A DNA stretch of 63,759 nt, counting the filler. It is 14 parts of 14 records of this genome, joined end to end, with 100 filler letters (N's around TTAATTAATTAA, not from the genome) between each part and the next. Parts side by side here need not be neighbours in the genome. Positions count along the whole stretch, not along the records: positions 23,768 to 27,597 come from SRR15195285_1032; 13 more parts are not named here. One strand, written 5' to 3'. This document shows positions 7,964-63,759 of the stretch, one piece after another (within the stretch, counting starts at the first letter, position 1; each line of letters begins with the position of its first letter). The notes below the pieces were generated by a model. The model was not told the origin of the DNA and made no database searches. It saw only the letters and a list, made by a program, of their open reading frames with translations. Both the position numbers and the translations under genes were made by a program.

Positions 7964-8439
7964 CTGTCGAGACAGGCAGCTCGTCTTGCTGATTCGTTGT
8001 GACGCTGTACGCAAGGCTTGCCGCGCCACCACCTGGTCTGACCTTAATGCATCGAAGGCCAAAAAGATACACGACGTTTGTCCCTTGGCTGTCGTCCACG
8101 TCGCTACGTCGGTCACGGGTAGCGCCGCAGCAGCAGCGCGCGCGCGCGCGCGCGCGCGGGCGGCGCGCCACTCATGCATTCAGCGCGTGCGCATGCACGC
8201 ACCTTGATTAAAGGCCATCACAATGTGATTCCCGGGTCGGGGTGCACAAATGANNNNNNNNNNNNNNNNNNNNNNNNNNNNNNNNNNNNNNNNNNNNTTA
8301 ATTAATTAANNNNNNNNNNNNNNNNNNNNNNNNNNNNNNNNNNNNNNNNNNNNAGATCCATCTCAGAATCAGTCAGGATTCCGTACTATATTTCTCAGTG
8401 AGTTTTCCGTGTTCCAGCCGGTGACGGTTGGACGTCGGG

Positions 8440-11400: not shown

Positions 11401-12714
11401 CAGCAGAGGAATGCTTTTGAGAAAATGCAAGAGGCTCAGACCGAGCTTCATCGGACAAGTGATATCGTCCAGAAGAAATGCGATGATATTGTGGCCTTGA
11501 AGAGCAAGAACAGTAGGTTACAGGATCAGATCGAGTCCATTAGCCACGACAGCAAGTCCCAGCGTCCACGGTTCATGCGCGATAAAAAGGGCAACACAGA
11601 CGAGTTGAAGAAACTACGTGACGAGCTGCACAACTCCACCAGCCAGCGTCAAATTTTGGAGAGACGGCTGGACAGAGCTCGACTTGACATCAAACGGTTG
11701 GAGGGTGAGCTGGAAGGCGGCCAGGTCGATTTCACAGGGAGCTTTTCAAATTCAGTGCTGGAGCGCCCGGGCGCCCGGCAGTCTTTCGCGTCCCCGTCAA
11801 TGTCACGTGTCAGCACGAAGAGCGAGTCCAGGAGAGTCAGCTGGCATGCTGATGATGTGGAGGAGACACTAGAATACGAACGAGGCTCAACCCCAGTATT
11901 GACCGGCAAGCGTGCGACAACAAGAACAACTGATAGAAGTAAGCGGGGAGGGGAGGAGGACCACTACGACAGTGAAATGACTCCAGAGGAGGCGAGGAAG
12001 GCAGGGCGCAAGAAGCAAATGGCTGCCAGGTTCGCTGCTCTCTCGGCAGAGAGTGACGGTGAGAGTGCGCTGCTAGACGGTCCAGGCCATGGTCGAGAGG
12101 ACGATGGTGACCTACTGGCTGAGGCTACAAGGATACGCGACAGCGTGATGACTAGCGGCCTTAATATGATGACTATCGACCCTAAAGCGGCGCAAGCCGA
12201 AGACCCCGAGGCGCTTGAGCAATATAGGGAATATGAGAGGGATCGTCACCTGACACGCTTAGATTCGATGTGGGAGGGTTGTACAGTCCTGAAGCACTCT
12301 ACCTCGCGCGGCCGATCAAAATCTCGACATCTGCAGCTCAGTGCAGACACGACAGAACTCACTCTTGGGAAGACGACGTCAAAGCAGGCCACAACCACCG
12401 TGCCACTGGACGACGTTGTGCGAGTGCACTTTGGATCGCACGGTAGCCCTGGGTTTCGGGCGCGCGCAGTGATGTTGGGGCTTGCCGAATGGCACTGTTT
12501 CAGTCTCGAGTGCGCCAACGGAGATTTCGTCGACATAAGCACGACATGCGACGAGGATGCTGAGACGTGGTGTATCGGGCTACGCGCGTTTGTGGACAAG
12601 CAGCAGGGCGTTTCACTGGGGCATCGTGCGCACGAGGATCCGTGGGTGTATAGGGCGCAACAGTTGTTGTGGCAACGGGCAACGATGAGAGTGACAGCCA
12701 GTCTCGACGCGTGA
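8440..12714 (+). CDS. Large scaffold protein: PDZ-like domain, coiled coils, SH3/KOW-like barrel, C-terminal PH domain
   Basis: 1428-aa open frame. PDZ-like LNFKARGQLGIKFG...ITSLVKGGLAE (~9330-9580); long heptad regions; PLC/Num1-type PH-like GCTVLKHSTSRGRSKSRHLQLSAD...CFSL...DAETWCIGLR (~12270-12600). Confidence 0.75.
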   Translation: MAGDDGMMMGAGEQPSLDLAAASAQARQAIEQDEVFGELLGLLGEPAAAAVEASIAAQPASVLPMAPSAVDDSFGGEAAGATAARVQSATAAARVSTELDSAVSPTVSDDGFAYEEVEEVSDSDGDESDTLHLSGASTATPAASLPAAAGKTTAATSRSLFARDKRRSADVPAGAASVVRGGAAESTQTLHERYTELSAKIFRKEHTPAEAAEAERLANLLEAQDSAAEQPASEDDLPQRVARTPASIETKQQPATPSASRYEGSESVKRPRASEQQNGSHGLAGGVAKVLENGDTRLNFKARGQLGIKFGKDAGGHSVITSLVKGGLAETMCKAHGVSIQGSERLVYVGDVEVFSMLSSKTTEVLKAAAVARPLVLTFRPTAKMSPRRSPRNSQGSQRSVRATPGAASTSKPVQMTDGDDNSAVSEAEQAREDEMKAEIATLQALLAAKTRENSELAEKHSTLAEDSKQKEQQAEVLGQAQQVASVLQSHLSKLDMENEELRAQLQQAEERSRSDAQVALEVGMLVRVISDSEHIGREGTVHMIGGDTVTVLFPYEGGAGTEPADADEIMMSVVCPEGVQAGDPIEITTAEGETLEVVLPPGVAAGEEFTVSSPAKPRMHQKDGVQVEFHRDELELVGESDDVSSTPQKGDSKKKKKSMKRFDPSGWKSKKQLKEEAMEKKREEEDAEMQLLAEQSFHKGKGKISAGQADASANKLSRWTKRKAPVESSEPELNPLQGSFEKSLSARAPRIPAVSDSATKASPPKKIRAIGMDQLEAQLSGLPDKVQANVLERLRNEELLVFEVRRLKREARERQQQDNLARAWHEQYKDFVQQLTLLAKGRLGKVEVDEAFLGGELAEEQVAAIELIRKNMRAAKERASHYQRQLSETVKTKEKNETILHEMVTDPSFAAAGYDPTGSPGGGDEASMRSEIAHLKRTLKNREKMDRTARIVSAEAAVELNEMREKLEVAEHTASMARDQVRNARQQQRNAFEKMQEAQTELHRTSDIVQKKCDDIVALKSKNSRLQDQIESISHDSKSQRPRFMRDKKGNTDELKKLRDELHNSTSQRQILERRLDRARLDIKRLEGELEGGQVDFTGSFSNSVLERPGARQSFASPSMSRVSTKSESRRVSWHADDVEETLEYERGSTPVLTGKRATTRTTDRSKRGGEEDHYDSEMTPEEARKAGRKKQMAARFAALSAESDGESALLDGPGHGREDDGDLLAEATRIRDSVMTSGLNMMTIDPKAAQAEDPEALEQYREYERDRHLTRLDSMWEGCTVLKHSTSRGRSKSRHLQLSADTTELTLGKTTSKQATTTVPLDDVVRVHFGSHGSPGFRARAVMLGLAEWHCFSLECANGDFVDISTTCDEDAETWCIGLRAFVDKQQGVSLGHRAHEDPWVYRAQQLLWQRATMRVTASLDA

Positions 12715-12953: not shown

Positions 12954-13389
12954 NNNNNNNNNNNNNNNNNNNNNNNNNNNNNNNNNNNNNNNNNNNNTTA
13001 ATTAATTAANNNNNNNNNNNNNNNNNNNNNNNNNNNNNNNNNNNNNNNNNNNNCATAATTACTATAGTAAAAATTCGGTGCGTCCCCAAATGGGCACAAA
13101 ATCTGACGTACTCCATTTAAGTCCTTCGATGTTTGGAGGTCGAGATCGAGACCCGCAGGGGGTCTCCCTGTACTGGTGTACTAGACCAGAATCCTGGATC
13201 ACAACATAGGTAGGTGTACAACCATTAGGCGAAGTCATTGAAGGCGCAGGCACTACTACAATCATCACTGTGTTTGGCTGCGCGACTACGCTGATTTGCA
13301 CAGGGTTGACCGTAACACTGAACATTGACGCGTACTACTATGGCGATGGATGTGCTAGCCAACAACATCATTCCTTTTTGTTCACAACA

Positions 13390-16300
13390 TCACGCCCATG
13401 GGGCCAACTCAAGGTCTTCTGGCTCTGCAGTGTTGTCGCTCGATGCCTTCAGAAGTATCTCATGTGGTTGGTGCTTCGTGCCGTGTCTCCAAGTAACTTT
13501 GTCGATGGTGAAAACAGAGTAGGGAACAAACAAAAACTCCTCCTCTCCCGGGATCATGGTATTCTTCTTCACTAGAGACGCGTTGTACATTGGGCTACGG
13601 GCATCCATAATGATTAGCCACATCATGTGCGAATCACCCGTGTTCGCCCTATTGATGAAACCTTGAGCTACCTCACGGTTGGTTGTAGTCGCAAGGTACA
13701 TTGGCACCCGGTACGTCTTTCCCTCGACAAAGAATCCGCGATGTGTGTTGTCAAATCCAGTGCCACGGTACACTTGCTTGCGTGGGATCATTGACTCTCT
13801 CATCAGGTCAGTTGCCGCGTCTGGAGGCATATCGCCGACGACACAAAGTGCATTAATGCAACGGGAAATCCTCACGGCGCGTCTCACCATTTGAGCATCA
13901 TCCCGGCGGAAAATATCATTCAACGCATCATACAAACGCTTATTGAGGCCGCCTCTCATAAATGACTCTGACGTCCACATCACCATTGCCTGTTCCTTTG
14001 GCCCTCCAGGCTTTGATTGCGCTTGCTGTCTCAGCTTGTCTGCCAAGGTCTCGCCGTGCGTCTCCCGTACCCCATTCACTGCGCAATACAGTTTCAACAG
14101 CTCGCGTACCTCAGTGAGCAATGAGTCTGTGTCAGCTATGATGTCCCGCCCAGCATGTCTATACTCACGAAGGTAATTAGAAGTTGCAAGTGTAACGGGC
14201 GCTGGTCTAGCACTATCGGCAGTAGTGTACTCGACTGACTCGTTTGCCGTCCAGCTGTTGTCTTGTGACTCTGCTGGCAACTTCAAGACAAGGTATAGCT
14301 GCGCCCCTGGGCCGATATTTGGATAGTCTGCCACTGTTCCATCGCGAAGCTCTTGATGCGAGATTAAAAGACGCTGTTGATTTGGTGGCGTGCCTGACAA
14401 CGCCTGAAGTTTCGTCTTGAGCATTGAAATGGAATCGAGACTGCTCACTGTCAGCGAATACGTGTGCCCATTAAGAGTTGCGATATCCACCGTGAAACTC
14501 ATCTCTTCAGCTGCTCCAGACAACAGCGGGACGAATCCATCGTCCATGTTGGATTGCCCAATATGCTTAATGAAAATAATTGTTCCTATGCCAAACACAA
14601 CTACGATGATAACCGGAGCAACAAAGCTGCCTGGACCGAGGTGATGGTGGTCAGCGTGACTATCATGCATGTCATTTGTTGTCCTACAATCTCCTGCGCG
14701 CCCACCAATGAGAGTCGAGTCATAATAATGCACGGCGCTTGTATCAAGCGACCCGAAAACTACCACCATCAAGCTTAGTGCCCCTGCAGCGATGCTGCAC
14801 GTTGGGTCAAGCGCCTGCTTGGATGCCGCAGTTCCAAAAAATAGCAAAGCGCACACGCCGTACACAAGCAGCGTGATCGAGAATATAGATTCCTGCGTCT
14901 GATTCTGCGCCAAGCATGTTCCCCAGAACGTGGTACTGACCCAAGCCAAAGAAGAAAGAAAAATCATTAATGCTACGGCGGATTTCTTGCCTCGATACAT
15001 AAAACTGTAACCTGCGACGCCTGTTGCAAACGCCGTGGCACCTGCGGAAAGACCATAGAAGCACGCCTCTGCGGTTGTGCAACACACTGGTCGGACTGCT
15101 AATTCAGCAGGGCTACGACCGCTGGAACCACTAATCAAGGATGAATTGTGCGTGTACACAGCGGTGATGTCGATTGAGGCAAATGTCGATACAGCTACAC
15201 TTATCACGCCGATGCCGACACAGAATGCCTGATCCCAGACGCGAACGGCAGAAAAAGCAGCACCTGGCGTTGTATATCGCGAAAACCAACCAACGGACGC
15301 GACAAAGCTCAGTGTCCCGTACACGCATAACGCCACTGCAAAAGCAGCTTCCTGTCTCCTATCTAGTATCAGACACGACGCCCAAAATGACAGACATATG
15401 ACACTCAGCGGGAGCAATGATGCTGTGGCACCCAGTGTTATTGCAACAGCACCATGCTTCGAAATCGCGTGTACGGGCGAGTTCTCTCCTAGCTGCCCTT
15501 TGACTCTTAGCACAACTATACTGCCAATTGCTACGACACTGCCAGCCAGACCATCGATTCCATAGAACCACAGCTCATTGGCAGTGCAGTGTGCAGCTGC
15601 CTCATCGAAGACACTACAGGTGGCGTTGGAACCAATTACCGAGCTATCATACTTGAAGACCGTCACAAGCTCGATCAATGCAAATGTCAACATGCCTAAG
15701 CTCAGCAAGCCGATAGAAATGCAGCTGACAGCCAAGCCATTGCCCGCTCTGTATATCAACACGATGCTCCATGCAGCTTGCACCACAGCTGTGATGCAAA
15801 GCAACACTGAAAAAGCGGGTTCTTGCGAAGCGTCCAACGCAATGCAAGACGACACGAAGGCTACGCAGATGAATGATAGCCACGCCGTCATGACGGTACG
15901 TGTCATTTGCAGACCATCTGGTAGACAGAAGACTTGGCAGCCCGTCACCACAGCGAGTGTCAGCGCGATACCCCCGAAGAACCACAGCTCGTTCTCCTCG
16001 CACGCGGTGGGGCAGCTTGTGGCGTTTTGAGCCTCTTTTCCCCAGTCTGAGATCAACCCGCGATCGAGCGCAAACACAACGTAGATCTCGAGCGAGGATG
16101 AAACGACAATTAGTGCACTCATGACCATCAGTGCCACACTAACACGTTTTGCAGTCTCGTTTGGCTGCCCGAAACGAGGCAACTTAGCCACAGCTGTGAA
16201 GATGGATCCAGTTTGCTTCTGCTGCCCCTCACCTCGCTCAATCCACGTATTGCCAACCAGAGCAAGGATTCCATAGATGCAAATCGCAACCGCGAAAGAA

Positions 16301-17667
16301 GGCTCTACCGTATGGTCTTCTGTTGTGCATCTCAGCCAAAATGCCGCTAAGATGATACAAAGGGGCATTATGGTGATCGCAACGACGATCGGCACTGCGG
16401 AAATGCAGTGATCCATTTCCCTGCACCGAGCTACCGTCCACCCGAGACCAACACTCACGGCTACTGAGACCGCGATCAACGTCATTGTTTTGTAGAACCC
16501 ATACTCGAAGTCCAGTGCATCTATTGATGAGCACGCAGAGCACTCAGCAGGATGCTGGCGATATCGCCCGGGACCGCAGTCAAAGCAACTTGTGGCTCTC
16601 GTCTTGACGTTTGCACGTCCAGGAGGGCAAGTGCGGCAGTGCGTACTGTTGAATGCTGGTTGGTAGGTAAGTGCGGGACAGTCAACACATGAGCTCTGAC
16701 CGGCGTTTGATACTCGACCAGGTGTACAGCCCGTGCATGCAACAGCGGCAGAGCCGGCAACAGAGCCATCTTTGCATGCGATGCAGGTGGAGCTTTTGTG
16801 CACGGGCTGATATTTGCCTGGATCACAGTCCAGACACGCACTGCGGTCATCGTTCGACATTCTCCCACTTGTGCAAGCCTTGCACTCCGTAGCTCCTCCC
16901 CGAGCAACTGAGCCTGACTCGCAGTCAATGCAACTGCTACTCCGTTGCGTGGGCTGATACTGGCCATTTGGGCAGCTCTCGCAATATGACCCGGAATGAG
17001 AAAACTTTCCAGCAGGACAACTGACACAAGACGTGTGCCCAGAGTTCGAAGTTTGCCCCGCGGAACATGAAGTGCAGGTACAAGCACTAGAACCAGAGAT
17101 GTGGCCCGTCGAACAACCTATACACCGCGAGCTTCCTGAGTTCGAGTACATTCCCGGTTGGCACGAGTCGCACCGTGTGTTGCCGTTCTCGTGGTACCCA
17201 CAGCTGCAGTCGTTGCACGAGCACGCCCCTGACGCAGAGATTCTGCCACTGCTGCATCTGGAGCAGGAGGAACTCCTCTTGCTGGAATACTGCCCTGCAG
17301 AGCAAGATGTGCATGACGATGCGCAGGAAGACGAGTGTGTCCCACACGCACACGCCTTCTCTTTGCCATCACCAGAAAACACACCAGAGCCACAAAACGC
17401 GGCGCTGCCAGCACAGTACGCCCCCGGCGCGCAACAGTGGCAGTCGCACCCGAATACACAGGTTACATCATCTGAGCATTCGCCTGAGGGGCAGTCTCCC
17501 ATCGATCGCGGCAAACTGCCGCCATCTGCGGCAAACGCTTGCTGATCATCAAGTCTCTGGAGGTGTGTCGCATTGTACGTGACGTTCCCCCCCAGCGTGA
17601 CGCCGAGGACATGTGCCACGAGCACGGTGAAAGCGCATGGCCACCCCACGGCAAACATCCACGACAT
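13390..17667 (-). CDS. Receptor-like protein: signal peptide, Cys-rich (ephrin-receptor-like/GCC2-GCC3) repeats, ~17 TM, ubiquitin-like domain, R-S-E class ADP-ribosyltransferase domain
   Basis: Intronless ~1425-aa ORF. CxxCxxG repeats at ~17500-16520; TM region 16500-14570; Ubl FTVDIATLNGHTYSLTVSSLDSISMLKTKLQALSGTPPNQQRLL...LYLVLKL at 14500-14280; ART motifs VYRG (~13770), YLATTT (~13690) and GEEEFLFVPYSVF (~13540). Confidence 0.85.
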   Translation of the reverse strand: MSWMFAVGWPCAFTVLVAHVLGVTLGGNVTYNATHLQRLDDQQAFAADGGSLPRSMGDCPSGECSDDVTCVFGCDCHCCAPGAYCAGSAAFCGSGVFSGDGKEKACACGTHSSSCASSCTSCSAGQYSSKRSSSCSRCSSGRISASGACSCNDCSCGYHENGNTRCDSCQPGMYSNSGSSRCIGCSTGHISGSSACTCTSCSAGQTSNSGHTSCVSCPAGKFSHSGSYCESCPNGQYQPTQRSSSCIDCESGSVARGGATECKACTSGRMSNDDRSACLDCDPGKYQPVHKSSTCIACKDGSVAGSAAVACTGCTPGRVSNAGQSSCVDCPALTYQPAFNSTHCRTCPPGRANVKTRATSCFDCGPGRYRQHPAECSACSSIDALDFEYGFYKTMTLIAVSVAVSVGLGWTVARCREMDHCISAVPIVVAITIMPLCIILAAFWLRCTTEDHTVEPSFAVAICIYGILALVGNTWIERGEGQQKQTGSIFTAVAKLPRFGQPNETAKRVSVALMVMSALIVVSSSLEIYVVFALDRGLISDWGKEAQNATSCPTACEENELWFFGGIALTLAVVTGCQVFCLPDGLQMTRTVMTAWLSFICVAFVSSCIALDASQEPAFSVLLCITAVVQAAWSIVLIYRAGNGLAVSCISIGLLSLGMLTFALIELVTVFKYDSSVIGSNATCSVFDEAAAHCTANELWFYGIDGLAGSVVAIGSIVVLRVKGQLGENSPVHAISKHGAVAITLGATASLLPLSVICLSFWASCLILDRRQEAAFAVALCVYGTLSFVASVGWFSRYTTPGAAFSAVRVWDQAFCVGIGVISVAVSTFASIDITAVYTHNSSLISGSSGRSPAELAVRPVCCTTAEACFYGLSAGATAFATGVAGYSFMYRGKKSAVALMIFLSSLAWVSTTFWGTCLAQNQTQESIFSITLLVYGVCALLFFGTAASKQALDPTCSIAAGALSLMVVVFGSLDTSAVHYYDSTLIGGRAGDCRTTNDMHDSHADHHHLGPGSFVAPVIIVVVFGIGTIIFIKHIGQSNMDDGFVPLLSGAAEEMSFTVDIATLNGHTYSLTVSSLDSISMLKTKLQALSGTPPNQQRLLISHQELRDGTVADYPNIGPGAQLYLVLKLPAESQDNSWTANESVEYTTADSARPAPVTLATSNYLREYRHAGRDIIADTDSLLTEVRELLKLYCAVNGVRETHGETLADKLRQQAQSKPGGPKEQAMVMWTSESFMRGGLNKRLYDALNDIFRRDDAQMVRRAVRISRCINALCVVGDMPPDAATDLMRESMIPRKQVYRGTGFDNTHRGFFVEGKTYRVPMYLATTTNREVAQGFINRANTGDSHMMWLIIMDARSPMYNASLVKKNTMIPGEEEFLFVPYSVFTIDKVTWRHGTKHQPHEILLKASSDNTAEPEDLELAPWA

Positions 17668-18481
17668 GCGCACAAAGATATATTTAATGGATGATCGTTC
17701 TCCTGTCGCTACTGTCGGAAGCTGAGGTGCGCGTCACAGATAGTCCAGTATAGACCCGCGCCAGCAGCTGGGGTCGCGTCTCCCGCACCATCGTGCGCGG
17801 CCGGGTATCGCCGGCGCGTTCACCAGCCAAGTCAGAACTTGCATTTGATAAACTCGTATCAATAGCCGTGTTGCACTATACAAACATACGAGTTTGTGGC
17901 AAAAATGTAAAATCGCAGTATCAATTTCCCGAAGGAGCGAACGGGTGGGCTGGGCTCGATCGACTCATCCACTCAAGCGACCCCGGAATTCCCCACGGTT
18001 GGGAGCAAGGCGCTGCTGGCGGGCGGGCTGCGCTGGCTGATAGAGAGGTTGTTGCATCAAAGAGCTGTGTGCACATTGGAAAGGCTCTGCCCTCTGGCTG
18101 GCTGGCGGGTTGGCGCTGTGTGGGGAGGCTGTTTGGGGAGGGGGGGCGGGCTGTGCGTTGTGGGGGACGCGGGCTGGGGGTGTTGCCAACTGGGGTGCTG
18201 GCGTGGAGAATTGCTGGCGAGGGGCGCTGGGCTGAGCTGGTCTTGCTCGCAGATAGCGAGCAGCGCTGGTTAGCTCTGCCTCTGGCTGGGTGCGTGGAAC
18301 CGTGTGGGGCACAGAGGAGGGGCGGCTATTGCTTGGCCGTTGCGGGTCAGGATCTGGTGTTGCCAGCCGGCTGCTGTCACGCTGCACTTGCTGAGGAGGA
18401 CCCTGGGCTGAGCTGGGCTTGCTCTGGCTGGCTGGAGAGCTGTGTGGCCAAAAAAGGGAGTCTGGATAAGGGTGCGAGAGG

Positions 18482-23584: not shown

Positions 23585-24016
23585 CGCCAGCCCTCCCGGC
23601 GTGCGATGCCCGATGCGTCCGTCGCCGGGCCTCACTGGGGGGTCAGACTGTGGGCCACTGGAAGGGTNNNNNNNNNNNNNNNNNNNNNNNNNNNNNNNNN
23701 NNNNNNNNNNNTTAATTAATTAANNNNNNNNNNNNNNNNNNNNNNNNNNNNNNNNNNNNNNNNNNNNAGCCACGAGAGTACCTACGCTGATACATCTGTA
23801 GTCAACATGAGTCTCTGTATATCGGTACCAATCTGGGCACTGAAAACTTAAGGATTCCCATTTGGGTACTTACGATATATCGAATTCGAATATATATATA
23901 CGCCGCGCTACTACTACTACTACTACCCGCTAGACCCGGTATATGTAGTGCAATCAGCGACAGCAGGCGTGGCCCACCTGCTACATGTAGAAGAGGCGGC
24001 CGGGATCTGCCAACGG

Positions 24017-24481
24017 ATGCCGCTGGCCAGACCGGTCGTAGTCGTCAGCCTGGTCGGCGCCCCGGCGCAGCCCGCGCTGTCTCTCGCCTACCAGCTGAAG
24101 ACAGCGCTGCAGCTACAGCAGACGCCACGGGTGCTCCGGCAGCGTGGCGAGGTTGTGGACATGGTGACGTTGGACGGGGATGATGCCGACACCTTGCAGC
24201 GCTCAGAGTGCGTGGCTTGTACGCTGTTTGGGGTGTCGGTCGGGGTTAGAGTACAGCAGGTTGCGCGCCCTGTGCGACAAGGCGCACTGCGAAAGCCATC
24301 GGCGATAGAGGCGAAGGCCGCTGCTGCTACGCCGACTGCAAACCGCACCGGTGAGACAGGCGCCGACTGCGATTGGTCGTCGGAGGATGACAATTGGATT
24401 CCCGACGCGTGGCGCCACATTGACTGCGAGGAACATGCGCGAAAAGCCAACGGTGGGCAACCAATTACACTGCGAGGTTGA
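24017..24481 (+). CDS. Hypothetical protein
   Basis: Open frame from ATG 24017 with coding-like composition after an AT-rich upstream region. No motif recognised. Confidence 0.35.
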   Translation: MPLARPVVVVSLVGAPAQPALSLAYQLKTALQLQQTPRVLRQRGEVVDMVTLDGDDADTLQRSECVACTLFGVSVGVRVQQVARPVRQGALRKPSAIEAKAAAATPTANRTGETGADCDWSSEDDNWIPDAWRHIDCEEHARKANGGQPITLRG

Positions 24482-24746
24482 TCGCCGCAGGTGCAGGCGT
24501 CGTCGCCACCGCCAGGAGCACCATAATCGGCCTACTAGTAATCTGTGGGGAAATCATATGTACCAGACTGTGACGGTCCAGATCGAACAATCCATCGACT
24601 GGACCCGAGCTGGACGCCCGCGTGTACAATCATGACAACGTTTTGCTCCTAGTACTGCACACTGCTCTAATCATCATCCGATCTCTCGGGCAAAACCAAC
24701 TCTAATGCTGGCGAAGGGTATGCTGTGATACTCAAGTCCATCGTTG

Positions 24747-27439
24747 CTATCGATTCGTGGCGCCCATACAAGGCTCCCTGCCTACCATCTGCGCCAACGA
24801 CGCTTGAACTGTGCGATCACCTCCCTCGCCCGCTGAGCTGCTGATACTTGTAGCTGCACGTGCAGCCAGCACATTCCCACAAACCACCTGCTCTGGCGGC
24901 TCGCCACGGATGCCTTCGACAATGGCACTAAGAAACTCGCGGATGTATGCACCTGCTGCTTCCTTCTCGGCAGCCTTCTGTTTCACAGTTAGACCGCGCC
25001 AGTATGCACGATAAGCCTCCGAACATTTACCCACACGAGCCGCTGCAGCCTCTGCTACCTCCTCCTCGCGCGCAGCTGCTGCACCTCGATTGTTGCCAGC
25101 AGCGTGTGGATCTATAGACGCTTTTGTAGTCTCCAACGACAAAATATCCCACCATTTCTTGTTCCTGTCTTCTGTTCCTTCTCTTACTTCCGCACCAGCT
25201 TGAGCGGCCATCATCTCAAGATCCAGCCCTTGTGCGGTGTAGTAGCTTCGGCTCCGCTCGTACGGTTGAATGCGTTGCAGCAGCCGCGTGTCACGTGTGT
25301 ATCTTGCCACGAGCCGCTCTTTACGCTCAACAATCGTCTCGTCGTCGTGCACACGGACGATGGTGGAGGACGCGACGAGTGGCCGTTGGCTTTTTTTTGC
25401 GCTGCCTAGCATCCATTCTCGACCTTCACTGATGCCTGCAAGCTGGCATAGCGAATCCAACACGTTCTTTAGCAATGATTCAAACGACACTGCAGAGGAT
25501 CCTTGTCCTATATCCCTACGGAGTGCGTTGTCTAAATGTCACTAGATCCAAGCGCAGTGGTGCAGGGTCCTCTCTCACGTAGCGGTTGAAGACTGGCGCG
25601 ATATCGTGTTCTTCGATTCGGCATTCGAACACATCAAGCTTGGTCAGCACCAGCCTCATTGGCAAGCTACGCACGACATCTTAACGCCACCAAACCACCC
25701 GCCAACATCACGACACGTCAGCTAACGATTCACCTTCTGACATCACCACAAGCAAGCCATGATTGCATGATTCGTCACTGCAAACTCACCCATCGCAGAA
25801 ATCTCAGCCAGCTGATCAAGGGCTTCCTCCATGCGCTCGGTTACACAGTCGTCAGCCACAACAGCTCGGTCAATGTCAGACATGGCCACCAAACACAGCA
25901 CCAACCCTTGTGGTGTTGCGACTGGCTTGTGAACGTGCGATGGTAGTGACTGCTTGATTGAGGACAAGTGGTCCGCAAATGCAGCCACTGCGTCGTCGCG
26001 CACTTCGCGTCGTCCTCCGCCATCCCACAGTCGCGCCCGCCAGGGAGTGTGTGCTCCTGCGTTGGATGCTGCATTCATATCACCAGTGGCGGGTGGCAAG
26101 TGAACTGAAATCGTGTTGACACCCTCCGTTGGTGTATGCACTCGCAAGACAGTCTCGAGAGAGGGACGGTACTTGTCGTCGGCCAGACAATCAAACCCAA
26201 CCGTCTCCAACAGCCAGGGCAGATTCTCAGTCGACGACGGTCCAACGCCAGCATGACCAGCTAGAATGTGAGCGTGCTCGTCTCGTCGAGACCAAGCTTG
26301 CGCGATAGCGTTAGATTGTGACGACCATATGCGGTCCATCGATGCAACAGCGCGCCTCCAGTACCTGCAAAAGCAGAAGAAGAGGCACGTGTTGAAGTCC
26401 AAACCGAACCACAGAGCCTCAGAGACAACGATGGACACGGTCGAAGAAGCCCACACAGACAGTGCTTCTATAGGAACCCGGATTTTACAACCGATTGACT
26501 ACGGTGCACGCACGCCCACTTTGCTGCGTAGGCCACGTCAGTGGGATCGGACGGGCAGAGGTATCGCACGACGTCTTCGGCATCTTCATACACAGTGACC
26601 TCTTTGGCACCAACTGTTGCCTCGAGAGCTTCTTCTGTGTCGAGCATATGCACCCACAGCTTCGCCTCGGTGGAGGATCCTGTCTCGTCGCCTGCTACGC
26701 AGAGCGCAAAGGTGAGCTGCAACTCGCCACTCTCGCCACTGCCGAGCTGACATGTTTCTTCGAGGGTAGGACACTGGATGGCTCCCACATCAACTCCAAA
26801 AGCGTCTGCCAACCTGCGCGCAAGTTTGTCTGCGGCCCGTACGCGATCGCTGTCATCTCTGCTGTGAGCACAGGCAGCAATGAGCTCCGAAAGAGGATAT
26901 CGCAACCTGATCTCCACAATCCACATAAGCAGCGCGCGCAGGTCCTCCCGGTTGATGTCGTGCTGCGATCGTGGTAAATATTCATGGACGTGACGCAGCA
27001 ATGCTGCTGTGGACGTGAGGACGCTACAACGGACATCGTCTGCAGCTTTGAGCAGCTGGAGATCGGTCAAGTTGGTGCCCGAGCCATATGCGATGTTGAG
27101 CTGACGAGAAAGCACCGTCTTGCCTGCGCCGCTACACCCAGCAAGTAAGATTTGGTGCTCTGGCGCTGCCGTCGGTTCAGCCTGTTTCCTCTCGCCACCA
27201 TCGGCGCGAAGCTGATGCACCACTGCCATGAGCAGAAGGGCCGCGATGATACCACCCGCACCTGCTCCGGCATTTGAGACTTAAGTGGTCGTCACACAGA
27301 TTCCAATACAGACTCATCAGCGTGGGAAAGAGCAAAAATCGTCGGAGCAGGTACGCTGCGCCTCGTCTGCGAAGTGGAGAACCAAACAGACTGCGCTGAG
27401 GGCCAGTGCAAGCTCGAATGTGAGTGCAACCCATCCCAT
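24747..27439 (-). CDS. Divergent heterotrimeric G-protein alpha-like protein with two N-terminal TM helices and large insertions (multi-exon)
   Basis: G1 ILLAGCSGAGKT; switch I YRPSLETVLRVHTPTEG; G3 LWDGGGRR; LVAMSDID...RMEEALDQL; G4 LVLTKLDVF (~25630-25650); alpha4-like EAAGAYIREF. Exon 1 MGWVALTFELALALSAVCLVLHF is spliced to AGGIIAALLLMAVV. Confidence 0.8.
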
Positions 27440-27814
27440 ATTCAGGATGACGGCGGCTCGCGGGGACCACGCACGCCTGGTGCCGAGTTCAACCTCTGCT
27501 GGCCGCGCCGCGCCCGGCGCCGCGCCGCGCCGCCGCATACGAACCGCAGGCAGGGCGCCGCCCCGCGCGATCCGGTCTTCAAATGCATGTGCCCAGANNN
27601 NNNNNNNNNNNNNNNNNNNNNNNNNNNNNNNNNNNNNNNNNTTAATTAATTAANNNNNNNNNNNNNNNNNNNNNNNNNNNNNNNNNNNNNNNNNNNNTGG
27701 GGTGAGCCAGAAACCACTTTTTCCTTTACGCTCTAACGTGCTCTTTCGTCGGCTAGCAGCTATTCGAATCCGTGCAGGCTCTATGCGTTTTCCCAGACAT
27801 GTTCATTGCCAACG

Positions 27815-30800
27815 CTAGAATCGCAACGTATGCCGAGGCTGCTGCCGCACGCGTCCCACTGACCTGTGCTTTGATTCGTTTCGCTTCTTTTCTCTTTGAG
27901 GCTGCTGATTCTCGTCAGTCTGTGGACCCTGTTGCTGGCTGGACCTTTGCTTTGAAGTTTTTCCCTGCTTTTCTCCTCGCTGTTGATTCTCGTCCGTCTG
28001 CGGCGCCCGTTGCTGGGCGGCGAAGGCTCGCAGCCGCTTCTGCTTCTCCCACGCCTCTGCGCGCTGCAAGAATGTATCTGTAGGCTTGTCCACTGCCTTC
28101 TTGGCCGACTCGCGCCTGTCCAATGCTGCTTTCTGCTCCGCCAGCTGATTAAACGACAGTCCCACAACTTGACGTCAGCAAAGTTGTGCTTTCAGGTCTT
28201 GTAGGCCACACACTGGACTATGAGCACTACACAGTCTCCAGTTCACGCACCTCGTGCTCCCGCTGCCGCTTCTCCTTTAGCAACTGATCAGATCGCGACA
28301 GAAAATCTCCCGATGGCCGACGGCGCTGACCGTTGGATGACTCTGCAAGAATCTTCTTCGACGATTTCGGGATGGAGGGCTTCTCCCTACGCATGATCAG
28401 CCAATGAAAACCATCATCGTTGCACACCAAGTTCAATGAAAATGGTCGCGGCAATGGGAAATGTGACAATGCATTGCAGAAGGATAAAATGGACGTCGAC
28501 GCACTTGAGAACCTTGGCCTGGACTGCCCGCGAAGCCTCCTCTCTCATCTCCGAAAGCCGGTGCTTGCGAGCTTGGTCGTTCTGATCCATTTGTTCCAAA
28601 AATCGAGCTTGCGCAGCTGGTGTGCGTTTTCGCACTGGCTTGCCGCCAGGGCGACCGGAGGCGACTGTGCGGGCACGCTCCTGCTGCGCCTCCTGTTGTT
28701 TGGCAAGCCAAGCCTGTCGCCGCTGCGCATCCTCAAGTGCTCTTTCAGCGTAGCTCAGCTCCTTCGGGCTCGCGTCGAGAGCCCGCTCCTCTACCACCAT
28801 CGCCTTCGTCGCGTCTACCTGTGGTGGTGCAGGCGCAGTCGAAGGACGTCCACGGGAAGCAGAAGACGTACGGCGACCACGAGAATTCGAGCCAGCACGC
28901 GAGGAAGATGCAGGACGCCGGCGAGCATCAGGTGTCCTTGAGCGGGTGGGTCCTCGGCTGTTTGCCCGGGCCGTGGATGATGTCCGTCCGTCCGACTTTG
29001 CTGCTGGCGGAACATACCGCTGTTTGGGGGCAGAGAGCGGCCGCCGAGGCTGTTTCTGCTTTGACTTGGAGTGGTCGACATTCGCGTGAGCTGACGATGG
29101 CTCATCCATGCCACTCCGTGCACCTACTGCTATGCGTGCCGTAGCGGTCGCTGTTGCGATCGCCCTCGGTTTCCCATTTCGAGCAATTGATGCTGTCGCA
29201 ACGGTTGCGGTCGTGGTCGGTGGCGATTTGGCGACAGGAATCGCGCCGATTACTTCACGTGCTTCGCGAAGCAGCGCCGTGAAGTCGATTCCGTCGCCGT
29301 TTGCTGTGGCAACATCTACATCTGTTCCGGTTGCATCCGCAACCTTCTGCTTCAGATCGGCGTGGGTATTCTCAAGGCCGAGAAAGCTTACTAAAGAGTC
29401 CACTGCAAGTGGGGTGATGTCGTGACTGCTGACCGTAATGCCCGGACCACAGGACTGAAGCTTCGCCCCGCGGAACAGCCTCCGAAGCTCCAGATCACTA
29501 ACCAACTTGGCACTAATATGTCCGCCAATGCGCAGCGACTGTAGAAAGTCGTCAAACTGAACTTCGCCCGACGGACACGAGCGATTGAGGACTCGTCGCA
29601 GAGACTGGCGGCCCATGTCTTTCCATAGCTTACGCAGTTTGCGCTTCAGCAGGTACACGTCCGCCTCAGCCTCAGCTGCATGCTCTGGTGTTGGCATAGC
29701 GACTGTCTCTGCGGCAACCGCAGCAGCAGCCGCTGCGGCCGTCGTATCTACTGAGCTACGACGTCTTGTAGCTCGGGTTGCCTGCTTCTTCGCTGATAGC
29801 TGACTCGGTGTTGCTGCAGGGGATTGAATCGTGGAGCGGCGCAAGTCAGAAAGTTCTACCTCGCCCGCTAGCTGCCTAGCCTCCGCAACCAGCTCGCTGA
29901 AGTCAATATCCGAGCCGTGCAGCGGAGAAGATGGATCGCTGGTAGCGGCTTGCACCTGTTCGCTCGCACGCTGCATGAAACGATTCGTTTTCGACGCAAC
30001 CTTCGCCGCCGCTGCCGCTGTCTGAGACCGAGTGACGGGACCCTCAGCGACATCCGGACGTCCCAGGCTGGGCTTCACCCGCTCTTGCTTGAGCAAGACA
30101 CCGTGCCGAGCTTTGCACTTGAAGTACCGCTTTCCGTGGACCGAGCCGTCGTGTTTGCCACAAGGGTGATCCAGCTTGATGCCGGCCCACTGGCCGATTC
30201 CCAACAGTGGAGCTGGCCCAAGAAAGCATATCGTTCCTGTCTGGTGCGTCCCTTGCAGAATCACTTCGCAGTCCTCACCAACCCGCAGCGTCGCCTCACT
30301 CGGACCAGCATTCGCTTCGTCCACCTGTTCGGTTACAATTGGCTCGTCCTCATCCACTGCAACGTTCGAGGGAGAAGTTGAAGCGGCTGCTGGCATCTGA
30401 GAGTGCTGGCTGCCAAGCTTCTGAGGGCTGTGCGGGGTTGAAAACGGGCTAGCGACTCTCTGACCGGTGCCAACCAATTGTCTAGCTTCCGCCAGCAACT
30501 GCCCAAAATCGTCCCCAAAGGCACTGCACACAGCGTCACCTGGTGATTTGTCAGCCTCTTCTTCTGCAGCAGCGAAACTGTCCTCCAGTGCTGCGTGCTT
30601 TGCAGCGAAACTTTCTTCAGCCTGCTGCATTGCCTCGGCCTCGGCCATCGCAAAGCTGTCTTCCAGTGCTAAGGCAGACGTGTCGGCTTCAAGGCTGGAG
30701 CGTGCTGACTCTACTACGTCGCTGCTGCCAAAAACTGAAGCTAGAGCCAGTTGCGCGCCGATGTGGTCGCCGTCAAGCACGCACTGAGCCGCCGCCATGC

Positions 30801-32181
30801 TTGGAGAGAGACTGACGGATGAAGCGTCATGCTGATTTTCTGGCGCGGACGGTGGAACAAAAGAGTGCAGGCTGATGTCCATATGGTCTATCCGATCACC
30901 ACGCGAGTCCTCTGGAACCTGATCCATCTGCTCCTCGTCCTCCGCTTCATCATCCGCCTCCTCTTCTGCTCCCTCCCCTTCGACATCGTCCTCCATGTCG
31001 TATTCTCGAGGTGTTCCGGGCAGCATCGCGAGCGCGGCGTCAATGCTGCCGCCCCTGCGTCGACCTGCACCGGCGCGACGCACGGGTCCCACGCCTACAG
31101 GGCTGCAGCTGTCGTTGAGGAAGGACCCGCTCTGCACACTTCCGAAGCTGTCAGAGCTCCCCCGTGTGTCCCCGCAGCTCGGGGTGCCGGATTCCGGCGT
31201 GTCCTGCGCCTCAGGTGTGCTATTTGTGGGCGCAGATGGCAGTGCAGACGGCAGCGCGGCTGGCGTAGCCAAAGCGATAACTTGAAAGTCATCCAGCAAC
31301 TCCGAGAGCTCTGATTCACCGGTACCTTGACTGGGCTCGGGAGAGAACAAGATCTCCTGCGGCTCGCTCTCGATCTCGTCCGTCGCGTGGGTGTCTGGCT
31401 CGCGAGAGGCCTGCTGGATATCGGGTCGCGTCTGCTCCGCGGCGGCGCTCATATTCTGAGGCGAGCCTTCGTCTTGCGTAGTTGCAAGCTGTAATAGACG
31501 ACCCACAGTGTCCTTGCGTCGTTCCTCGATGTCTTTCGGCGAGAGAGCCATGTCATAGTCAGCAATCTCGTTCCATGTTGCGGTGTCGGGCAACCCACGC
31601 TCTCGGCAGTTCTCCAGCCGCATACGCTCCGTCGGCGATGCGTTATCATTCGCGATATCTTTCGTGACGTCACTGGTATGTGACGGCGCCGCGGCGGTGC
31701 GGGCCGGACTGAGTGCCACGAGAGATCCAGCCAGCTTCGCGCCGAGCCCGCGTAATTTCTGAGCCGAGGTCGGCGCGGACGGCGCCGTCCCCTGCGCGAC
31801 CATCTCTGCGATCTCCGCGTCGCTTAGCACCGTGGTCTGTATGCGCACATCCTGCTCACTGTGCGGCGGTGCCTCCATAGGCGTCGCCATCGGTGTCTGC
31901 GCAGGCGAGCCGAGCGGGGTGTGCATCGGCGGGGTCGGCGACGGCGCATCCCTCGCCGGCGAGCTTGCGACGATCTGGTCCACCACCGCAACCCGCTCCC
32001 GCAACACGCTCAGCGCCTGCTCCAGCGCCATAGCCGTCGCACCCACCGCCTCGTTCGGCGCACTGTCAGCAGTCGTGTCCTCAGCCAGCTCTCCCTGCGT
32101 GGCGTCGCTGGGCGCCGCCGTGCGTGGCATAGCGCCGCCTTCTGCGCGGGCGATCCTGAAAACGCCGTCCCAACGTCCCAA
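27815..32181 (-). CDS. Large low-complexity CAP-Gly domain protein (microtubule-associated)
   Basis: CAP-Gly GTICFLG...GQWAGIKLDHPCGKHDGSVHGKRYFKC at ~30290-30075. Degenerate EF-hand-like segment at ~29650-29450. 3' exons joined by introns at 28504-28387 and near 28250. Confidence 0.8.
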
Positions 32182-32439
32182 CGGTCACTCGAAGAAGAGT
32201 TCCCCCTTACGCCTTAGCGGATGTAGCTAGAGACCCGTACAGTACTGTAAAGAACCTACCTTACCCCAACCGAATTCGAGCAAAATCGAGCAAAATCACT
32301 GCAGATCACGGGAGAAGGCCTATTCCCATACAGACCGAGNNNNNNNNNNNNNNNNNNNNNNNNNNNNNNNNNNNNNNNNNNNNTTAATTAATTAANNNNN
32401 NNNNNNNNNNNNNNNNNNNNNNNNNNNNNNNNNNNNNNN

Positions 32440-35400
32440 GGAGCCGGAGCCGGAGCCGGAGCCGGCGCCTTCAAGAGTAGATGGTGACGGCGCAGCACAT
32501 CATCATCATCCCCAGTGGACTGTGCGACTGCATAAGGAAGATATACGGGCTTGCTGTGCATACAAAGAAAGCACGAGGGAGACTGGAAGCTGTTGGAAGG
32601 TAATTACGTGCAGTCAAGACAATTCAGTCAGAGTGAGTGATGTGGATGACATTGGCGCGCACGCAGATCCAGAACGAGAATTCCGAACAGGGTATAAAAA
32701 ACGAGACCCGACCGCAAGTACGCCAGAACACAGCACAGACAGAACATCCGATAGCAGGCGGACCAAGACGCCTGGGACAGAAAGTCGAACCAGAGGAAGT
32801 CTTGTCGAGGATATTTCTGTATACCATCAGTTTGAGTTGGGTCTAGGTAGCTCTCTGCAAGCCCATAGCAGAGCAGTGAACGCTTGCTGTGTGTTCGGAA
32901 GTCGTCAATCGTGGGACGATGTGGATAGTTATGAGCAGCTAACTGCGCAGATGCACGAACTGAACCCTACCAAAGTGCTGACGGCTTCCGATGACTGCAC
33001 ATTGCGAGTCTGGTCGCTGAAAGACGACACCACTGGAGTTAGACCGGGCATGTGCCTACAGGTTCTCGGTGGGCATGCCTCACCGATAACAACGTGTTGC
33101 GTGCGATTTGATGGGGCTCGTTGGACGGGCGTGTCGTGCTCACAAAGTGTCAACTCAGGTTCCGTGCTACGCGTCTGGGATCTTGGCCCCCCGACGAAAG
33201 TCGATGGCGTGTGCCATTCCGATGTGACGGAGATATCCACTGGAATGCGTGTAGGTCAAGTTGATGCATCCTGCATTGCTGCTGTACCCAGTGGCTTCAC
33301 GCATGGTACATTTTCGGTAGTTGTCGGAATGATGAACGGATACATCAAATTGCACGATCTGTCAAATTCTGGTAGTATCGCACCAGTGCAGCACATATGG
33401 GAATCTCGGGACAACGTGCCTGACGCTACTTGGATTGCGTGGCTTGTCAAGTGCATTCAACAAGAATCCCCGCACTTGTTGTGGCGAAAATTCAGATCGG
33501 GACTAAAGACAACTACCTTGATGCACGAGCTTGCTCGGCGTCAGCATTCTGGGCGTGGCCCAGTGGATCACACTTTGTCAAGAATCTTAGAACCGTTTGC
33601 TTCAGATCGACAGACTGCGTTGAGTCGTAACATGGAGGCCGAAAAGGTGATCGAATTGGAGGCAGGCAGGGATCAGCGCACAGCAGAGGTCCGCCAACGA
33701 GAAGCACGTAAGCTGAGGGAAGCTCGAAAGAATCGAGAGGCTGCGTTAGTTAGGGCACTTGCAACGATAGGACTCGCTTTCCGATCTGGCCACTGTGAAG
33801 AAGACTGTGTGCCAGTGAGCAAGACTGTTCTGGACGTAGCAGTAGAACTCGCAGAAATGGAAGAGTTTACCAGAGCGCTGCTTGATGACTATAAAGACGC
33901 TATGGTGGCCCGTTTACCAGTCGTCACTTTTCTCAGTGAAGCTGAGACTGTGAAAGCTCTCGCCGCGTTTCCAGACATGACCCAGCACTTCCTCCAAGTT
34001 TTACCGCTACGATCGAGTCCTGACCTTGCATCTGCGGACAAACATTTCGATTTCACGGGTCCCGACGTCAATATGGCAGTCCGTGGCGCAGACAACATAT
34101 GCCCACCACCTCCCGAGCACTGTCTCAGTAGCTTGAACCTGACTCAGATTGTTAAGGACGATCCGGCAGAACCAGAAGTTAGAATACATGGCCCGGGTGC
34201 AGAAACTGTTCTGATCTACTACGAAGAGCAAGGTTTGAAAATTTGCAAAAATGAATCGACAACTGAGGGTGCCGTCCGAGTGTTCCAGGATCATGATGGC
34301 TGGTATGCGCAGTGTATCAACCCAGATTTGCGCGACAGAGTTTTTGTTTCACGCTCCAAGGAACATCGGCCTGTCCCGCTTTATCCTGCTGAGTTGCGCC
34401 TAGAAACAGACGATCGTCTCTACGTACTTTCGTATGAAAATGTGGACACCAAACTTATTGCTTACGCGATGACGGGCCTTTTACCCGCCAGATCTGCGAA
34501 AGCCGATCGACTACAAAACGTTGAAGCCGTACTAGATGCGCATCTAGGTGCAAGACAAATTCACCATTTGTCTGAACGGCAACGTGATCGGCTGAGACAA
34601 TCACTGGGTCTCGAGGAGGAGAAAAGTGCAGAATTCAACGGGATATTGAAACAATTACCCGGCGGGGAAGCTGTGAAGCGCCCCAGCTTACCAAGTGAGA
34701 TCTGCATAACAACTTCACATGAAAAACGGGTGAGGTTCTGGGACAAGTACATTGAAGGTAGGCATTGGTCTAACGAAAACTGGTCAGCCGAAAGAGGAGC
34801 TGCTGACGTCTTCTGCGGCTGCGTGGAGAACGAACAGAAACGACAAGGAAAAATTCAGAAGGAGGCAGATGATGCTGCCTCGCTTGTTCGAGCGGAAGTA
34901 GTGCCGTTTGAGGGCTGTCGTGGAGAAATTCAATCGTCCGCTTCCAGCTCTAGCGATTCAATAGGCTTTCCGGGTCGGCTGCCGTTCTTCAATCTTCTGG
35001 AGACTGCAACAAAACATTGTGGCAAGGTTCAAAATCCCGGGATCTTTACGGCGCCCACCCTCAAAGCTGTGGTTCATCACAAGTGGCAAACTACATCGAG
35101 AGCTTTATTCCGAGCGCAAGTCTGGGGGTATGTCGCGTATGTTGTGCTTTTCACCTATTTGCTGCTCACAAATGACATGTACTCGGGGCTGCAAAGCTGG
35201 CAAGCCCACTTGGCATGGTACTGCTGCGTAATTTACTCCGTACTGCTAGCTAAGTTCGAGCTGCAGCAGCTACGTCTGATAATTATGCGAAGACGTCCAA
35301 TGCGGGACTACTTCATTGATGTCTACAATTTGATAGATATCTTTGGTGGAGTCGCTGCGATGGCTGCACTCGTGCAGATGGCGGCGAAATACACGCATTC

Positions 35401-36756
35401 AGACGTCGTTCAAGCCCTTGCTGTACTGTTGCGGGGAGTAAAGGGTGTGTATTTCCTACGTGGGAATCCCTCGACGGCGCCTCTCATCAACATGCTGCAC
35501 CAGATCGTCAGAAATATGGGCAGCTTTTTGAAAGTCCTCGTCATTGTGTTGCTTACGTGAGTTGGTTCCATTTCCCTCGGCCCGTTTCGTCCGATTCTCA
35601 TGGCGCCTGTGATTGGTTGCTGCTGGCAGATTCTCATTGGCGTTCTTCCTTCTAATTCGGGATCCTGATCATCTCGATGCGAACCTAGATTGGGTTGAGC
35701 CGCCGTCAGCTGTATTGCAAGTATACGATATGGCCTTGGGTGATTTCACTGTTGCTGAGTTCAAGAGTGCTCCTGAATCGCCATTGGTTGCTGTGCTACT
35801 GTTCGTACTCTTCATGTTTGTGGTGCCAATCGTGATGCTAAATGCCCTCATTGCCATCATGGTGCGTTCTTGTACGAACCGAAAACGCCCATCTACCATG
35901 CAGGCAGCCAGACATTCTAACCAGCTGTACACCTGTTCAGGGGGAGACCTTATCAGAAGAAAAAGAACATGCGGAACAGTCGAATTTGCTCGAACGAGCT
36001 GTTGTCATCTTGGACTTTGAATTCCTCATCGATACGCACAGACGCGTTTCGAACTCTACAAATGCCATTCAATCGTGGTGCAACGGCGGAAAGTGGGCAA
36101 CAGTGCAGAGAATGGTATATGTACTCGCTGCGTCGTGCGCGTGTACTTTTGCTGTCTTGTTTGTCGGACTTTCCGTCACACTTCTCCAGGCCCCTACAGG
36201 AAGCTCTTCTTCAGATTCTGATGAAATTCGCATGACCTTTCTCGATACGTTTGGAACGCGGTACCGGGATTGCACTCAGCTTGCGGCATCAGCGTGCATT
36301 ATGTCAGGTCTGTGGTATCACATGATGACATGGTGTCAGCACTGGGAGCGTACGAAACGTAATTTTCTTGTCCTCGCCGCGCCGGGTGGCTGGACTACAG
36401 TTTCGTTCGTTTTGGCTGTCGTCATGACCGTGTGCTGGTGCAATGTAGCGCACGACTGGACGCCTTGGGATCACTGGCATGATATCCTAATGGCCTTGGC
36501 GGCGAGCATCGCCTGGGTTCTAGCTGAAATCATCTTGCCTGAAAATCTACATGTACCCACGGATAGCAGCTGGTGGTGCTGGAGGCGCTGGTGGGCGCTG
36601 GCCGGGAAGATCCCTCACGACGAACAAGAGATATTACCATACCTACACGTATTGTCCCCACAGGAAGATGAGACAGTTACTGCCCCACACACAACTCATC
36701 TGAGAGCGTACTCTGACATGATGGAAGAGCACCTGACGGCTACCGCCGCCCACCTC
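32440..36756 (+). CDS. WD40-repeat plus TRP-like ion-transport channel protein, truncated at both contig ends
   Basis: WD40 motifs ITCSQDNSVRV, LTASDDCTLRVWSL, LGGHASPITTC and LRVWDL. Pre-S1 LKAVVHHKW; S1-S6 with DYFIDVYNLID, pore YDMALGDF and S6 FVVPIVMLNALIAIM|GET. Introns at 35557-35629 and 35862-35940. Confidence 0.85.
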
Positions 36757-37417
36757 NNNNNNNNNNNNNNNNNNNNNNNNNNNNNNNNNNNNNNNNNNNN
36801 TTAATTAATTAANNNNNNNNNNNNNNNNNNNNNNNNNNNNNNNNNNNNNNNNNNNNGACCCCCATTCTCGGTCGTCAGAAGCAAACGAGTGCCGATTCGG
36901 CCCTCTGTCATTGTCATTGTCATATAGTGATGATGAAAGTCAACGCTGTCTCCCGTCCGGAATTTCCTTGAAAAGCGGTTTCTGCGAAGCAAAAGCAGGG
37001 ACACAAGCCCAGTTCGACAAGTTCTGAAGTCGGTCACAGTTCCGAGTTGGGCAAACGTGCATGCGCGCGCGCGTGTCAAACGTACTAGTACAGTACATGT
37101 GTACACTGTAAATTGTGTACTGTGTACACTAGCTAGTATACGAATGCACGCCCGTAATCCAGGAACGATACACGGCACTTGTATACTAGATCTAGTACTA
37201 GTACTAGTACGTCATAGCCACATGCGGTACGCACATCGATATAATTGCCGCCGCGCACGCCGCTGTTCCTGTTGGCCGCGGCGTCGCGGCGGTCGCCCGA
37301 CCCCACTGGGGCACGCAGACGCTGGGAAGTTGTTGCTGTTGGGCCCCCGTGGTGGTCAGCAGGGGGCAGAGCACGTTCCCGACGGACGCCCCCCGCACGG
37401 GAGGGAGGGAGTGAGGG

Positions 37418-63747: not shown

Positions 63748-63759
63748 CGTTTGTGCTAC

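Follow-up and report, generated by a model that had tools for sequence, protein, structure and literature searches.

Human disease has drawn attention to two catalytic positions of the alpha subunit of heterotrimeric G proteins (G-alpha): in G-alpha-s the substitutions R201H and Q227R cause endocrine tumours and McCune-Albright syndrome, and R183 and Q209 are the corresponding oncogenic positions of G-alpha-q/11. The oncogenic mutations at these sites (G-alpha-s R201H/C and Q227R/L/H, G-alpha-i1 R178C and Q204R) are single somatic changes in canonical, lipid-anchored, receptor-coupled proteins. R201H and Q227R are listed among the gain-of-function variants of G-alpha-s in a table of PMC9959179, and Q204R and R178C are stated to abrogate hydrolysis of guanosine triphosphate (GTP) by G-alpha-i1 in 10.1101/795088. 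The same source describes the plant extra-large G proteins (XLG1-3) as homologues of G-alpha that naturally carry other residues at both catalytic positions and bind GTP-gamma-S 100-1000 times more weakly (10.1101/795088). Here we describe a gene on the minus strand of a 63,759-nt stretch of draft assembly (the window), whose product is, as judged from profile and alignment matches, a very divergent member of the G-alpha family. It has His at the catalytic Arg site and Arg at the catalytic Gln site, the same residues as in the oncogenic mutants; in the present family the two changes are ancient, fixed in the germline and part of a remodelled protein.

Proteins that keep the nucleotide-binding motifs while catalytic residues are naturally substituted, as in the present family, are also known elsewhere. 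They are the constitutively GTP-bound small GTPases Rnd1-3 and RhoH, which belong to the Rho family, and the slow G-alpha-z, a canonical G-alpha that keeps its catalytic Arg and Gln and, at the P-loop site matching G42, has Ser. To our knowledge, none of them has a transmembrane anchor or an inserted domain of the kind predicted for the family described here.

The natural loss of both catalytic residues is thus already known from the plant XLGs. As 10.1101/795088 describes them, XLGs share with the present family the replacement of the switch II Gln by a basic residue (Arg or Lys in XLGs, Arg here), extra non-G-alpha regions, and an action outside the standard GTPase cycle, which for the present family we infer. 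They differ at the Arg site, which is Glu in XLG and His here, and in the binding motifs, XLG being without the P-loop Gly and Lys and DVGG whereas the present family keeps G1-G4. They also differ in the added regions, an N-terminal Cys-rich region with a nuclear localisation signal (NLS) in XLG (10.1101/795088) as against a predicted hydrophobic anchor of two helices, an insert of predicted ferredoxin-like fold and a C-terminus that is novel in the present family. Among the features that define XLGs, we did not find the Cys-rich/NLS extension, the Arg-to-Glu change or the loss of the P-loop Lys and DVGG; only the Gln-to-Arg change is shared. Since PMC8584482 describes XLGs as confined to land plants, the likeness is probably convergent. 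What appears new here with respect to XLGs is the retention of the binding motifs, the His at the Arg site, the putative transmembrane anchor, the inserted domain and the new C-terminus. We found no prior description of the family in the literature searched, supplements being outside its scope; a 2011 comparative-genomics study of heterotrimeric GTPases in Gene could contain one. For the G-alpha active site, the family would amount to an experiment done by nature, with both disease substitutions fixed together in a protist lineage and the nucleotide-binding motifs retained. Beside the plant XLGs, it would also be a second, probably independent instance in which a G-alpha homologue has left the GTPase cycle, here with a different architecture. 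As a compact system, it would allow one to ask if hydrolysis is abolished or re-wired by an Arg at the Gln site combined with a His at the Arg site.

Family membership and catalytic positions

The 695-residue orthologue P0001, which is 50% identical to the window protein over 631 aligned columns, scores 77.9 bits on the Pfam G-alpha profile PF00503, above its curated cut-off of 48.8 bits; the whole-protein score was taken from P0001 and the window protein was scored exon by exon. Exons 1-3 of the window gene cover consecutive parts of this one profile (exon 1, 22.8 bits at profile positions 20-97; exon 2, 24.8 bits at 112-202; exon 3, 15.3 bits at 248-282). When compared with PDB sequences, P0001 gave 202 distinct matches at E up to 1, and the best 60 are all G-alpha-type chains (best E 2.6e-6); with a profile of five orthologues, the 60 matches listed among solved chains are again all G-alpha. 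In the ESM Atlas, too, every one of the nearest clusters is G-alpha, the second being plant XLG1-like (0.91), which we take as a lead only. The G-alpha identity that a sequence-only reading of this DNA had proposed is borne out.

The minus strand of 26001-26170 reads ...SLETVLRVHTPTEGVNTISV...WRARLWDGGGRREVR..., and the His codon (26136-26138) and Arg codon (26010-26012) of the sequence-only reading agree with the spliced model in coordinates and residues. The motifs that it had called retained are found there too, namely GCSGAGKT, the switch I Thr and TKLD, and DGGG is kept as well. By phmmer, VLRVHTPTEG, within fdcladdkyrpsletvlrvhtptegvn, aligns to G-alpha-q. The five-orthologue profile puts the family His on the second Arg of LRTR in the G-alpha-i1 chain 1svk_A (index 177 = R178), and aligns alrarlWdGGGrrevr with LHFRLFDVGGQRSERK of the G-alpha-o chain 6wwz_A, the Arg after GGG standing on the Gln of DVGGQR. 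These stretches score 5-8 bits each, which is weak, and are collinear with strong matches in beta-4/alpha-3 and G4; such HMMER alignments to solved chains support the proposed equivalence to R178 and Q204 of G-alpha-i1.

Other positions of functional interest are changed as well. The Ser of GCSGAGKT occupies what we take to be the position of Ras G12 and G-alpha-i1 G42, where Ser also slows hydrolysis. The switch II residues that contact G-beta-gamma and effectors (K209, K210 and W211 of G-alpha-i1) are presumably D, D and A here, and the RGS-contact Thr182 of G-alpha-i1 presumably corresponds to Glu.

The two catalytic replacements are conserved throughout the family: His is present in all 14 sequences covering the switch I site, and Arg in all those covering the G3 site (13/13). 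GCSGAGKT is identical in 13 of the 14 covering sequences, P0008 having GCRGTGKT, and TKxD, which some bona fide GTPases also carry, is found in 8/8 at G4 (TKLD in L001, TKSD in the P0001 cluster). In the five-sequence alignment of exon 2, RARLWDGGGRR forms an invariant 11-column block. The sequences represent six lineages (the window protein with P0019; P0020; P0021 with L001; P0022; the P0001 cluster with P0023; P0006 with P0017), and at 28% identity in the exon-2 alignment P0006 and P0017 have MRMHRPS and DASGRR. Across these alignments, the His/Arg pattern is more than chance.

The family is rare. A search with exon 1 returned 7 matches among 1.84 billion representatives, exon 2 returned one longer relative and five of similar length, and the C-terminal region had P0001 itself as its sole match; a metagenome scan gave one locus, L001. 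The family may have deeper and more varied branches, since its more distant members P0006/P0017 and P0008/P0018 diverge in layout. In P0006, about 110 residues separate switch I from G3; P0008, besides its GCRGTGKT, has longer hydrophobic N-terminal regions.

L001, a 1419-nt metagenome contig whose protein is 78% identical to the window protein, has the same exon layout, with GT-AG at all four intron positions as in the window gene. Over 331 codons, the non-synonymous (dN) and synonymous (dS) divergences between the two are 0.136 and 0.409, giving a dN/dS of 0.33 (z = 5.95, p = 2.6e-9), and the exons are 83% identical, the introns 65-79%. In addition, intact orthologues of 691-695 residues are present on five separate contigs; those of the P0001 cluster are uninterrupted open reading frames (ORFs) on contigs of 2283-6255 nt, compatible with complementary DNA or an intron-less gene. 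A strain variant (a contig of run X1, 25963-26361) shows 12 differences, 6 of them synonymous, 5 non-synonymous and 1 intronic, and leaves the switch I His and G3 Arg codons unaltered. The locus is under purifying selection and therefore not a pseudogene; on these comparisons it is a real, selectively maintained gene and not a relic. Orthologues thus keep His and Arg under purifying selection, as the sequence-only reading had proposed to check, and the pseudogene status that it had named as a possible refutation was not found. In the X1 variant, four of the five non-synonymous changes fall at positions 309-346 (four-exon numbering), around switch I and the following beta-2/beta-3 loop.

Departures from the textbook G-alpha architecture

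The family, the His/Arg pair and G1-G4 stand as first read from the DNA; that interpretation had overlooked a predicted transmembrane anchor, an inserted alpha/beta domain and the precedent of the plant XLGs. At the site of the G-alpha N-terminal helix, the window protein has about 65 residues with two hydrophobic helices, the segments being residues 1-27 (peak hydropathy 2.3) and 27-49 (2.0). Two hydrophobic segments stand ahead of the P-loop in all seven sequences covering the N-terminus, where G-alpha has an amphipathic, lipid-modified helix that binds G-beta-gamma. Whether the two segments form a hairpin or a signal peptide followed by an anchor, the GTPase domain would be cytosolic.

In the helical-domain region, the Pfam G-alpha profile matches both flanks, and the middle of about 140 residues is predicted to be alpha/beta. 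The AlphaFold2 model of exon 1 has a mean predicted local distance difference test score (pLDDT) of 71, rising to about 90 over residues about 100-230. The fold matches of this inserted domain (Foldseek best E 8e-3; VIA best Z 6.7, with ACT, S6 and PheRS-type matches at Z 5-6.7) are all ferredoxin-like, ACT, S6- or PheRS-type, at the level of a common fold and not of a family. Variable low-complexity loops lie in beta-2/beta-3 and after switch II, with poly-G in P0001 and poly-Q in P0022.

The Pfam G-alpha match ends near position 280 of the 333 of the profile. The last 231 residues are conserved with P0001 (e.g. RY.RD..LLQR.QPY.RSR.YY and AY.REF), and matched neither a Pfam family nor a PDB sequence, nor any Atlas cluster consistently; the last 120 residues had no match in the PDB at E up to 10. 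AYIREF, followed by a short strand, is a possible remnant of G5/alpha-5. We also considered VVCGNVLAARA as beta-6/G5 and rejected it, the stretch being absent from P0001.

Mechanism and competing explanations

We favour a membrane-anchored GTP binder, crippled in hydrolysis and standing outside the cycle of receptor, G-beta-gamma and RGS proteins, a reading on which our confidence is evenly balanced. In this scheme, the two N-terminal hydrophobic helices would anchor the protein in the membrane with its GTPase domain in the cytosol. The conserved nucleotide and Mg elements (GxxxxGKT, switch I Thr, DxxG and TKxD) would hold GTP. Every position that serves hydrolysis in canonical G-alpha has been exchanged and the new residue fixed (His for the switch I Arg, Arg for the switch II Gln, Ser for the P-loop Gly42 equivalent). 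GTP would be hydrolysed very slowly and stay bound most of the time, and the protein would act as a platform or switch that is tethered to the membrane and stands apart from the classical cycle. Its control would lie with other elements, perhaps the ferredoxin-like insert, the C-terminal region with its conserved sequence, or turnover of the protein. Binding and slow hydrolysis are here deduced from the motifs, and they, the topology and the independence from G-beta-gamma and receptors are all suggested by sequence. GTP binding is favoured by the contrast between G1-G4, frozen here, and the weakly binding XLG2, in which DVGG and the P-loop Gly and Lys are gone. The sequence-only reading had called the protein constitutively on or a pseudo-GTPase; 'constitutively on' presumes a receptor, G-beta-gamma and effector cycle that probably does not apply, given the two hydrophobic helices that stand in for the N-terminal helix and the altered residues on the switch II surface.

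Several observations weigh against this scheme. Because the AlphaFold2 model of P0001 (15-row alignment) is unusable, with a mean pLDDT of 43 and values below 50 over residues 278-617, the placement of the residues rests on weak collinear sequence alignments. The Asn of G4 is replaced by Thr, and G5 (TCAT) and the alpha-5 helix were not detected in the Pfam, PDB and Atlas searches, so guanine binding could be impaired. The Arg that stands at the Gln site, together with the His at the Arg site, may reflect an exchange of functions and not a loss. The dN/dS of 0.33 is, we presume, relaxed relative to classical G-alpha. Finally, none of the 14 pieces of RNA-library contigs on the locus, which come from 4 runs, bridges a splice junction, and three of them (X1 records 3 and 5, X3 record 11) retain an intron (35-132 nt).

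It is unlikely, but deserves weight, that the protein is a nucleotide-independent pseudo-GTPase like plant XLG2, binding no guanine nucleotide at cellular concentrations and serving as a membrane-tethered scaffold or decoy. The failure to detect G5 and alpha-5 in the Pfam and PDB searches, the Thr in place of the G4 Asn and the XLG1-like cluster as second-nearest Atlas neighbour (0.91) would suit it, and so would the XLGs themselves, as G-alpha homologues with both catalytic residues replaced (Gln to Arg or Lys) and GTP-gamma-S binding 100-1000 times weaker. However, XLG2 is without the P-loop Gly and Lys and DVGG (10.1101/795088). In the present family, GxxxxGKT, the Mg-binding Thr, DxxG and TKxD show little or no variation over six lineages, which is hard to explain without nucleotide binding, and the 11-column block RARLWDGGGRR is invariant. 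A GTPase that stays active through a rewired catalytic site, or one completed by a partner, is in our view improbable to a similar degree: the arginine finger would have moved to switch II, the switch I His would orient or activate water, or a dedicated GTPase-activating protein (GAP) would supply the missing groups. Other GTPases do without the Gln: translational GTPases employ a His that follows DxxG, and Rap relies on an Asn supplied by its GAP. Both changes co-occur in 13/13 sequences, the basic finger and the polar water-orienting residue being exchanged across the two sides of the gamma-phosphate, and the strict invariance of His and Arg is as compatible with a part in catalysis as with a locked state. 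Yet either substitution alone cripples hydrolysis in canonical G-alpha, the Ser at what we take to be the G12/G42 position suggests slow hydrolysis, and there is neither a GAP candidate nor a usable structural model (P0001, pLDDT 43). A more specific version, with the catalytic pair swapped in a working GTPase of inverted active site that has a transmembrane hairpin as its tether and, possibly, a small ligand on the ferredoxin/ACT-like domain as its gate, we regard as rather improbable; if true, it would be a self-contained, receptor-independent G-alpha switch.

That the locus is a pseudogene, whether in decay or not expressed, or that the gene model is an artefact, is by far the least probable of these explanations. 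It would account for the missing spliced RNA contigs, the introns in the RNA-library pieces and a start codon that had to be inferred. With introns retained and splice joints missing, these pieces may stem from DNA carried over into the libraries or from RNA that is still unspliced, and the RNA-library contigs support neither expression nor silence of the locus. Against a pseudogene stand the open frame over five exons with GT-AG introns, the conserved intron positions and dN/dS of 0.33 (p about 1e-9) with L001, and the intact orthologues of 691-695 residues on five separate contigs.

Gene model and source contigs

The gene model, built by comparison with relatives, has five exons on the minus strand (27439..24747) and encodes a protein of 734 residues; its introns are short (93, 149, 110 and 136 nt) and all GT-AG. 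The start codon was inferred from orthologues because the frame remains open upstream as far as the contig end, and the exon 0 peptide MGWVALTFELALALSAVCLVLHFADEAQR matches the N-termini of P0003, P0004 and P0007. The junction of exons 1 and 2, AAKWA|YWRR, agrees with P0001 and P0004, and the acceptor of exon 4 was picked by the agreement of FNRY|LAGISEGRE with P0001 FNSYLAGLAEGRD. Metatranscriptome contigs at 25372-25727 and 26462-26733 have introns in place.

Table 1. Features of the G-alpha-like gene and of the window that contains it
Feature	Position in the window	Strand	Remarks
Switch I LRVHTPT	26127..26147	-	His codon CAT 26138-26136 at the catalytic Arg site; Mg-binding Thr kept
G3 DGGGRR	26007..26024	-	Arg codon CGA 26012-26010 at the catalytic Gln site; DxxG kept
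G1 P-loop GCSGAGKT	27116..27139	-	GxxxxGKT kept
G4 TKLD	25633..25644	-	Lys and Asp kept, Asn of NKxD replaced by Thr
Predicted ferredoxin-like beta-alpha-beta-beta-alpha-beta domain, ~140 residues	26534..26953	-	Sits where G-alpha has alpha-B/alpha-C
Exon 0	27355..27439	-	ATG 27439-27437; first hydrophobic helix MGWVALTFELALALSAVCLVLHF (hydropathy 2.3); donor GT at 27354
Exon 1	26514..27261	-	Second hydrophobic helix 27203-27259, P-loop, alpha-1/alpha-A, inserted alpha/beta domain; donor TGGGC|GTGCGT
Exon 2	25790..26364	-	Remaining helical domain, switch I, beta-2/beta-3, G3/switch II, beta-4, alpha-3; orthologues P0019-P0023, P0001
Exon 3	25579..25679	-	Beta-5, G4 TKLD (25633-25644), alpha-G
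Exon 4	24747..25442	-	231-residue C-terminal region of unknown fold and stop codon
Own contig of the gene	23768..27597		Bounded by N44-TTAATTAATTAA-N44 linkers
Linkers 1-7	3448-3547, 8254-8353, 12954-13053, 23668-23767, 27598-27697, 32340-32439, 36757-36856
Linkers 8-13	40221-40320, 43445-43544, 50002-50101, 53103-53202, 57351-57450, 60636-60735

The window is eukaryotic DNA and consists of 14 contigs of 3-10 kb joined by 13 identical 100-nt linkers (44 N + TTAATTAATTAA + 44 N). Being a concatenated draft assembly of separate contigs, it gives no meaning to the gene order across linkers. On the contig of the G-alpha-like gene, four other ORFs had no Pfam match and an Rfam search returned none, and tblastn found no paralogue of the gene elsewhere in the window. 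The closest named relative is Picozoa sp. COSAG02 (EukProt), at 75-79% identity; this one named source points to a picozoan or a close relative, that is, to a picozoan-like marine protist as the putative host of the gene.

Long ORFs without a Pfam family were observed in the window at 8425-12711 (1429 residues), 61024-63759 (912 residues) and 59015-60604 (530 residues). Five further long ORFs on other contigs carry domains typical of eukaryotes: CAP-Gly (28417-32184, minus strand; 66 bits), ubiquitin with ephrin-receptor-like (13393-17733, minus), glycosyl hydrolase 32 (6350-8179, minus), calcineurin-like phosphoesterase (40588-43209, plus) and WD40 (32441-35557, plus).

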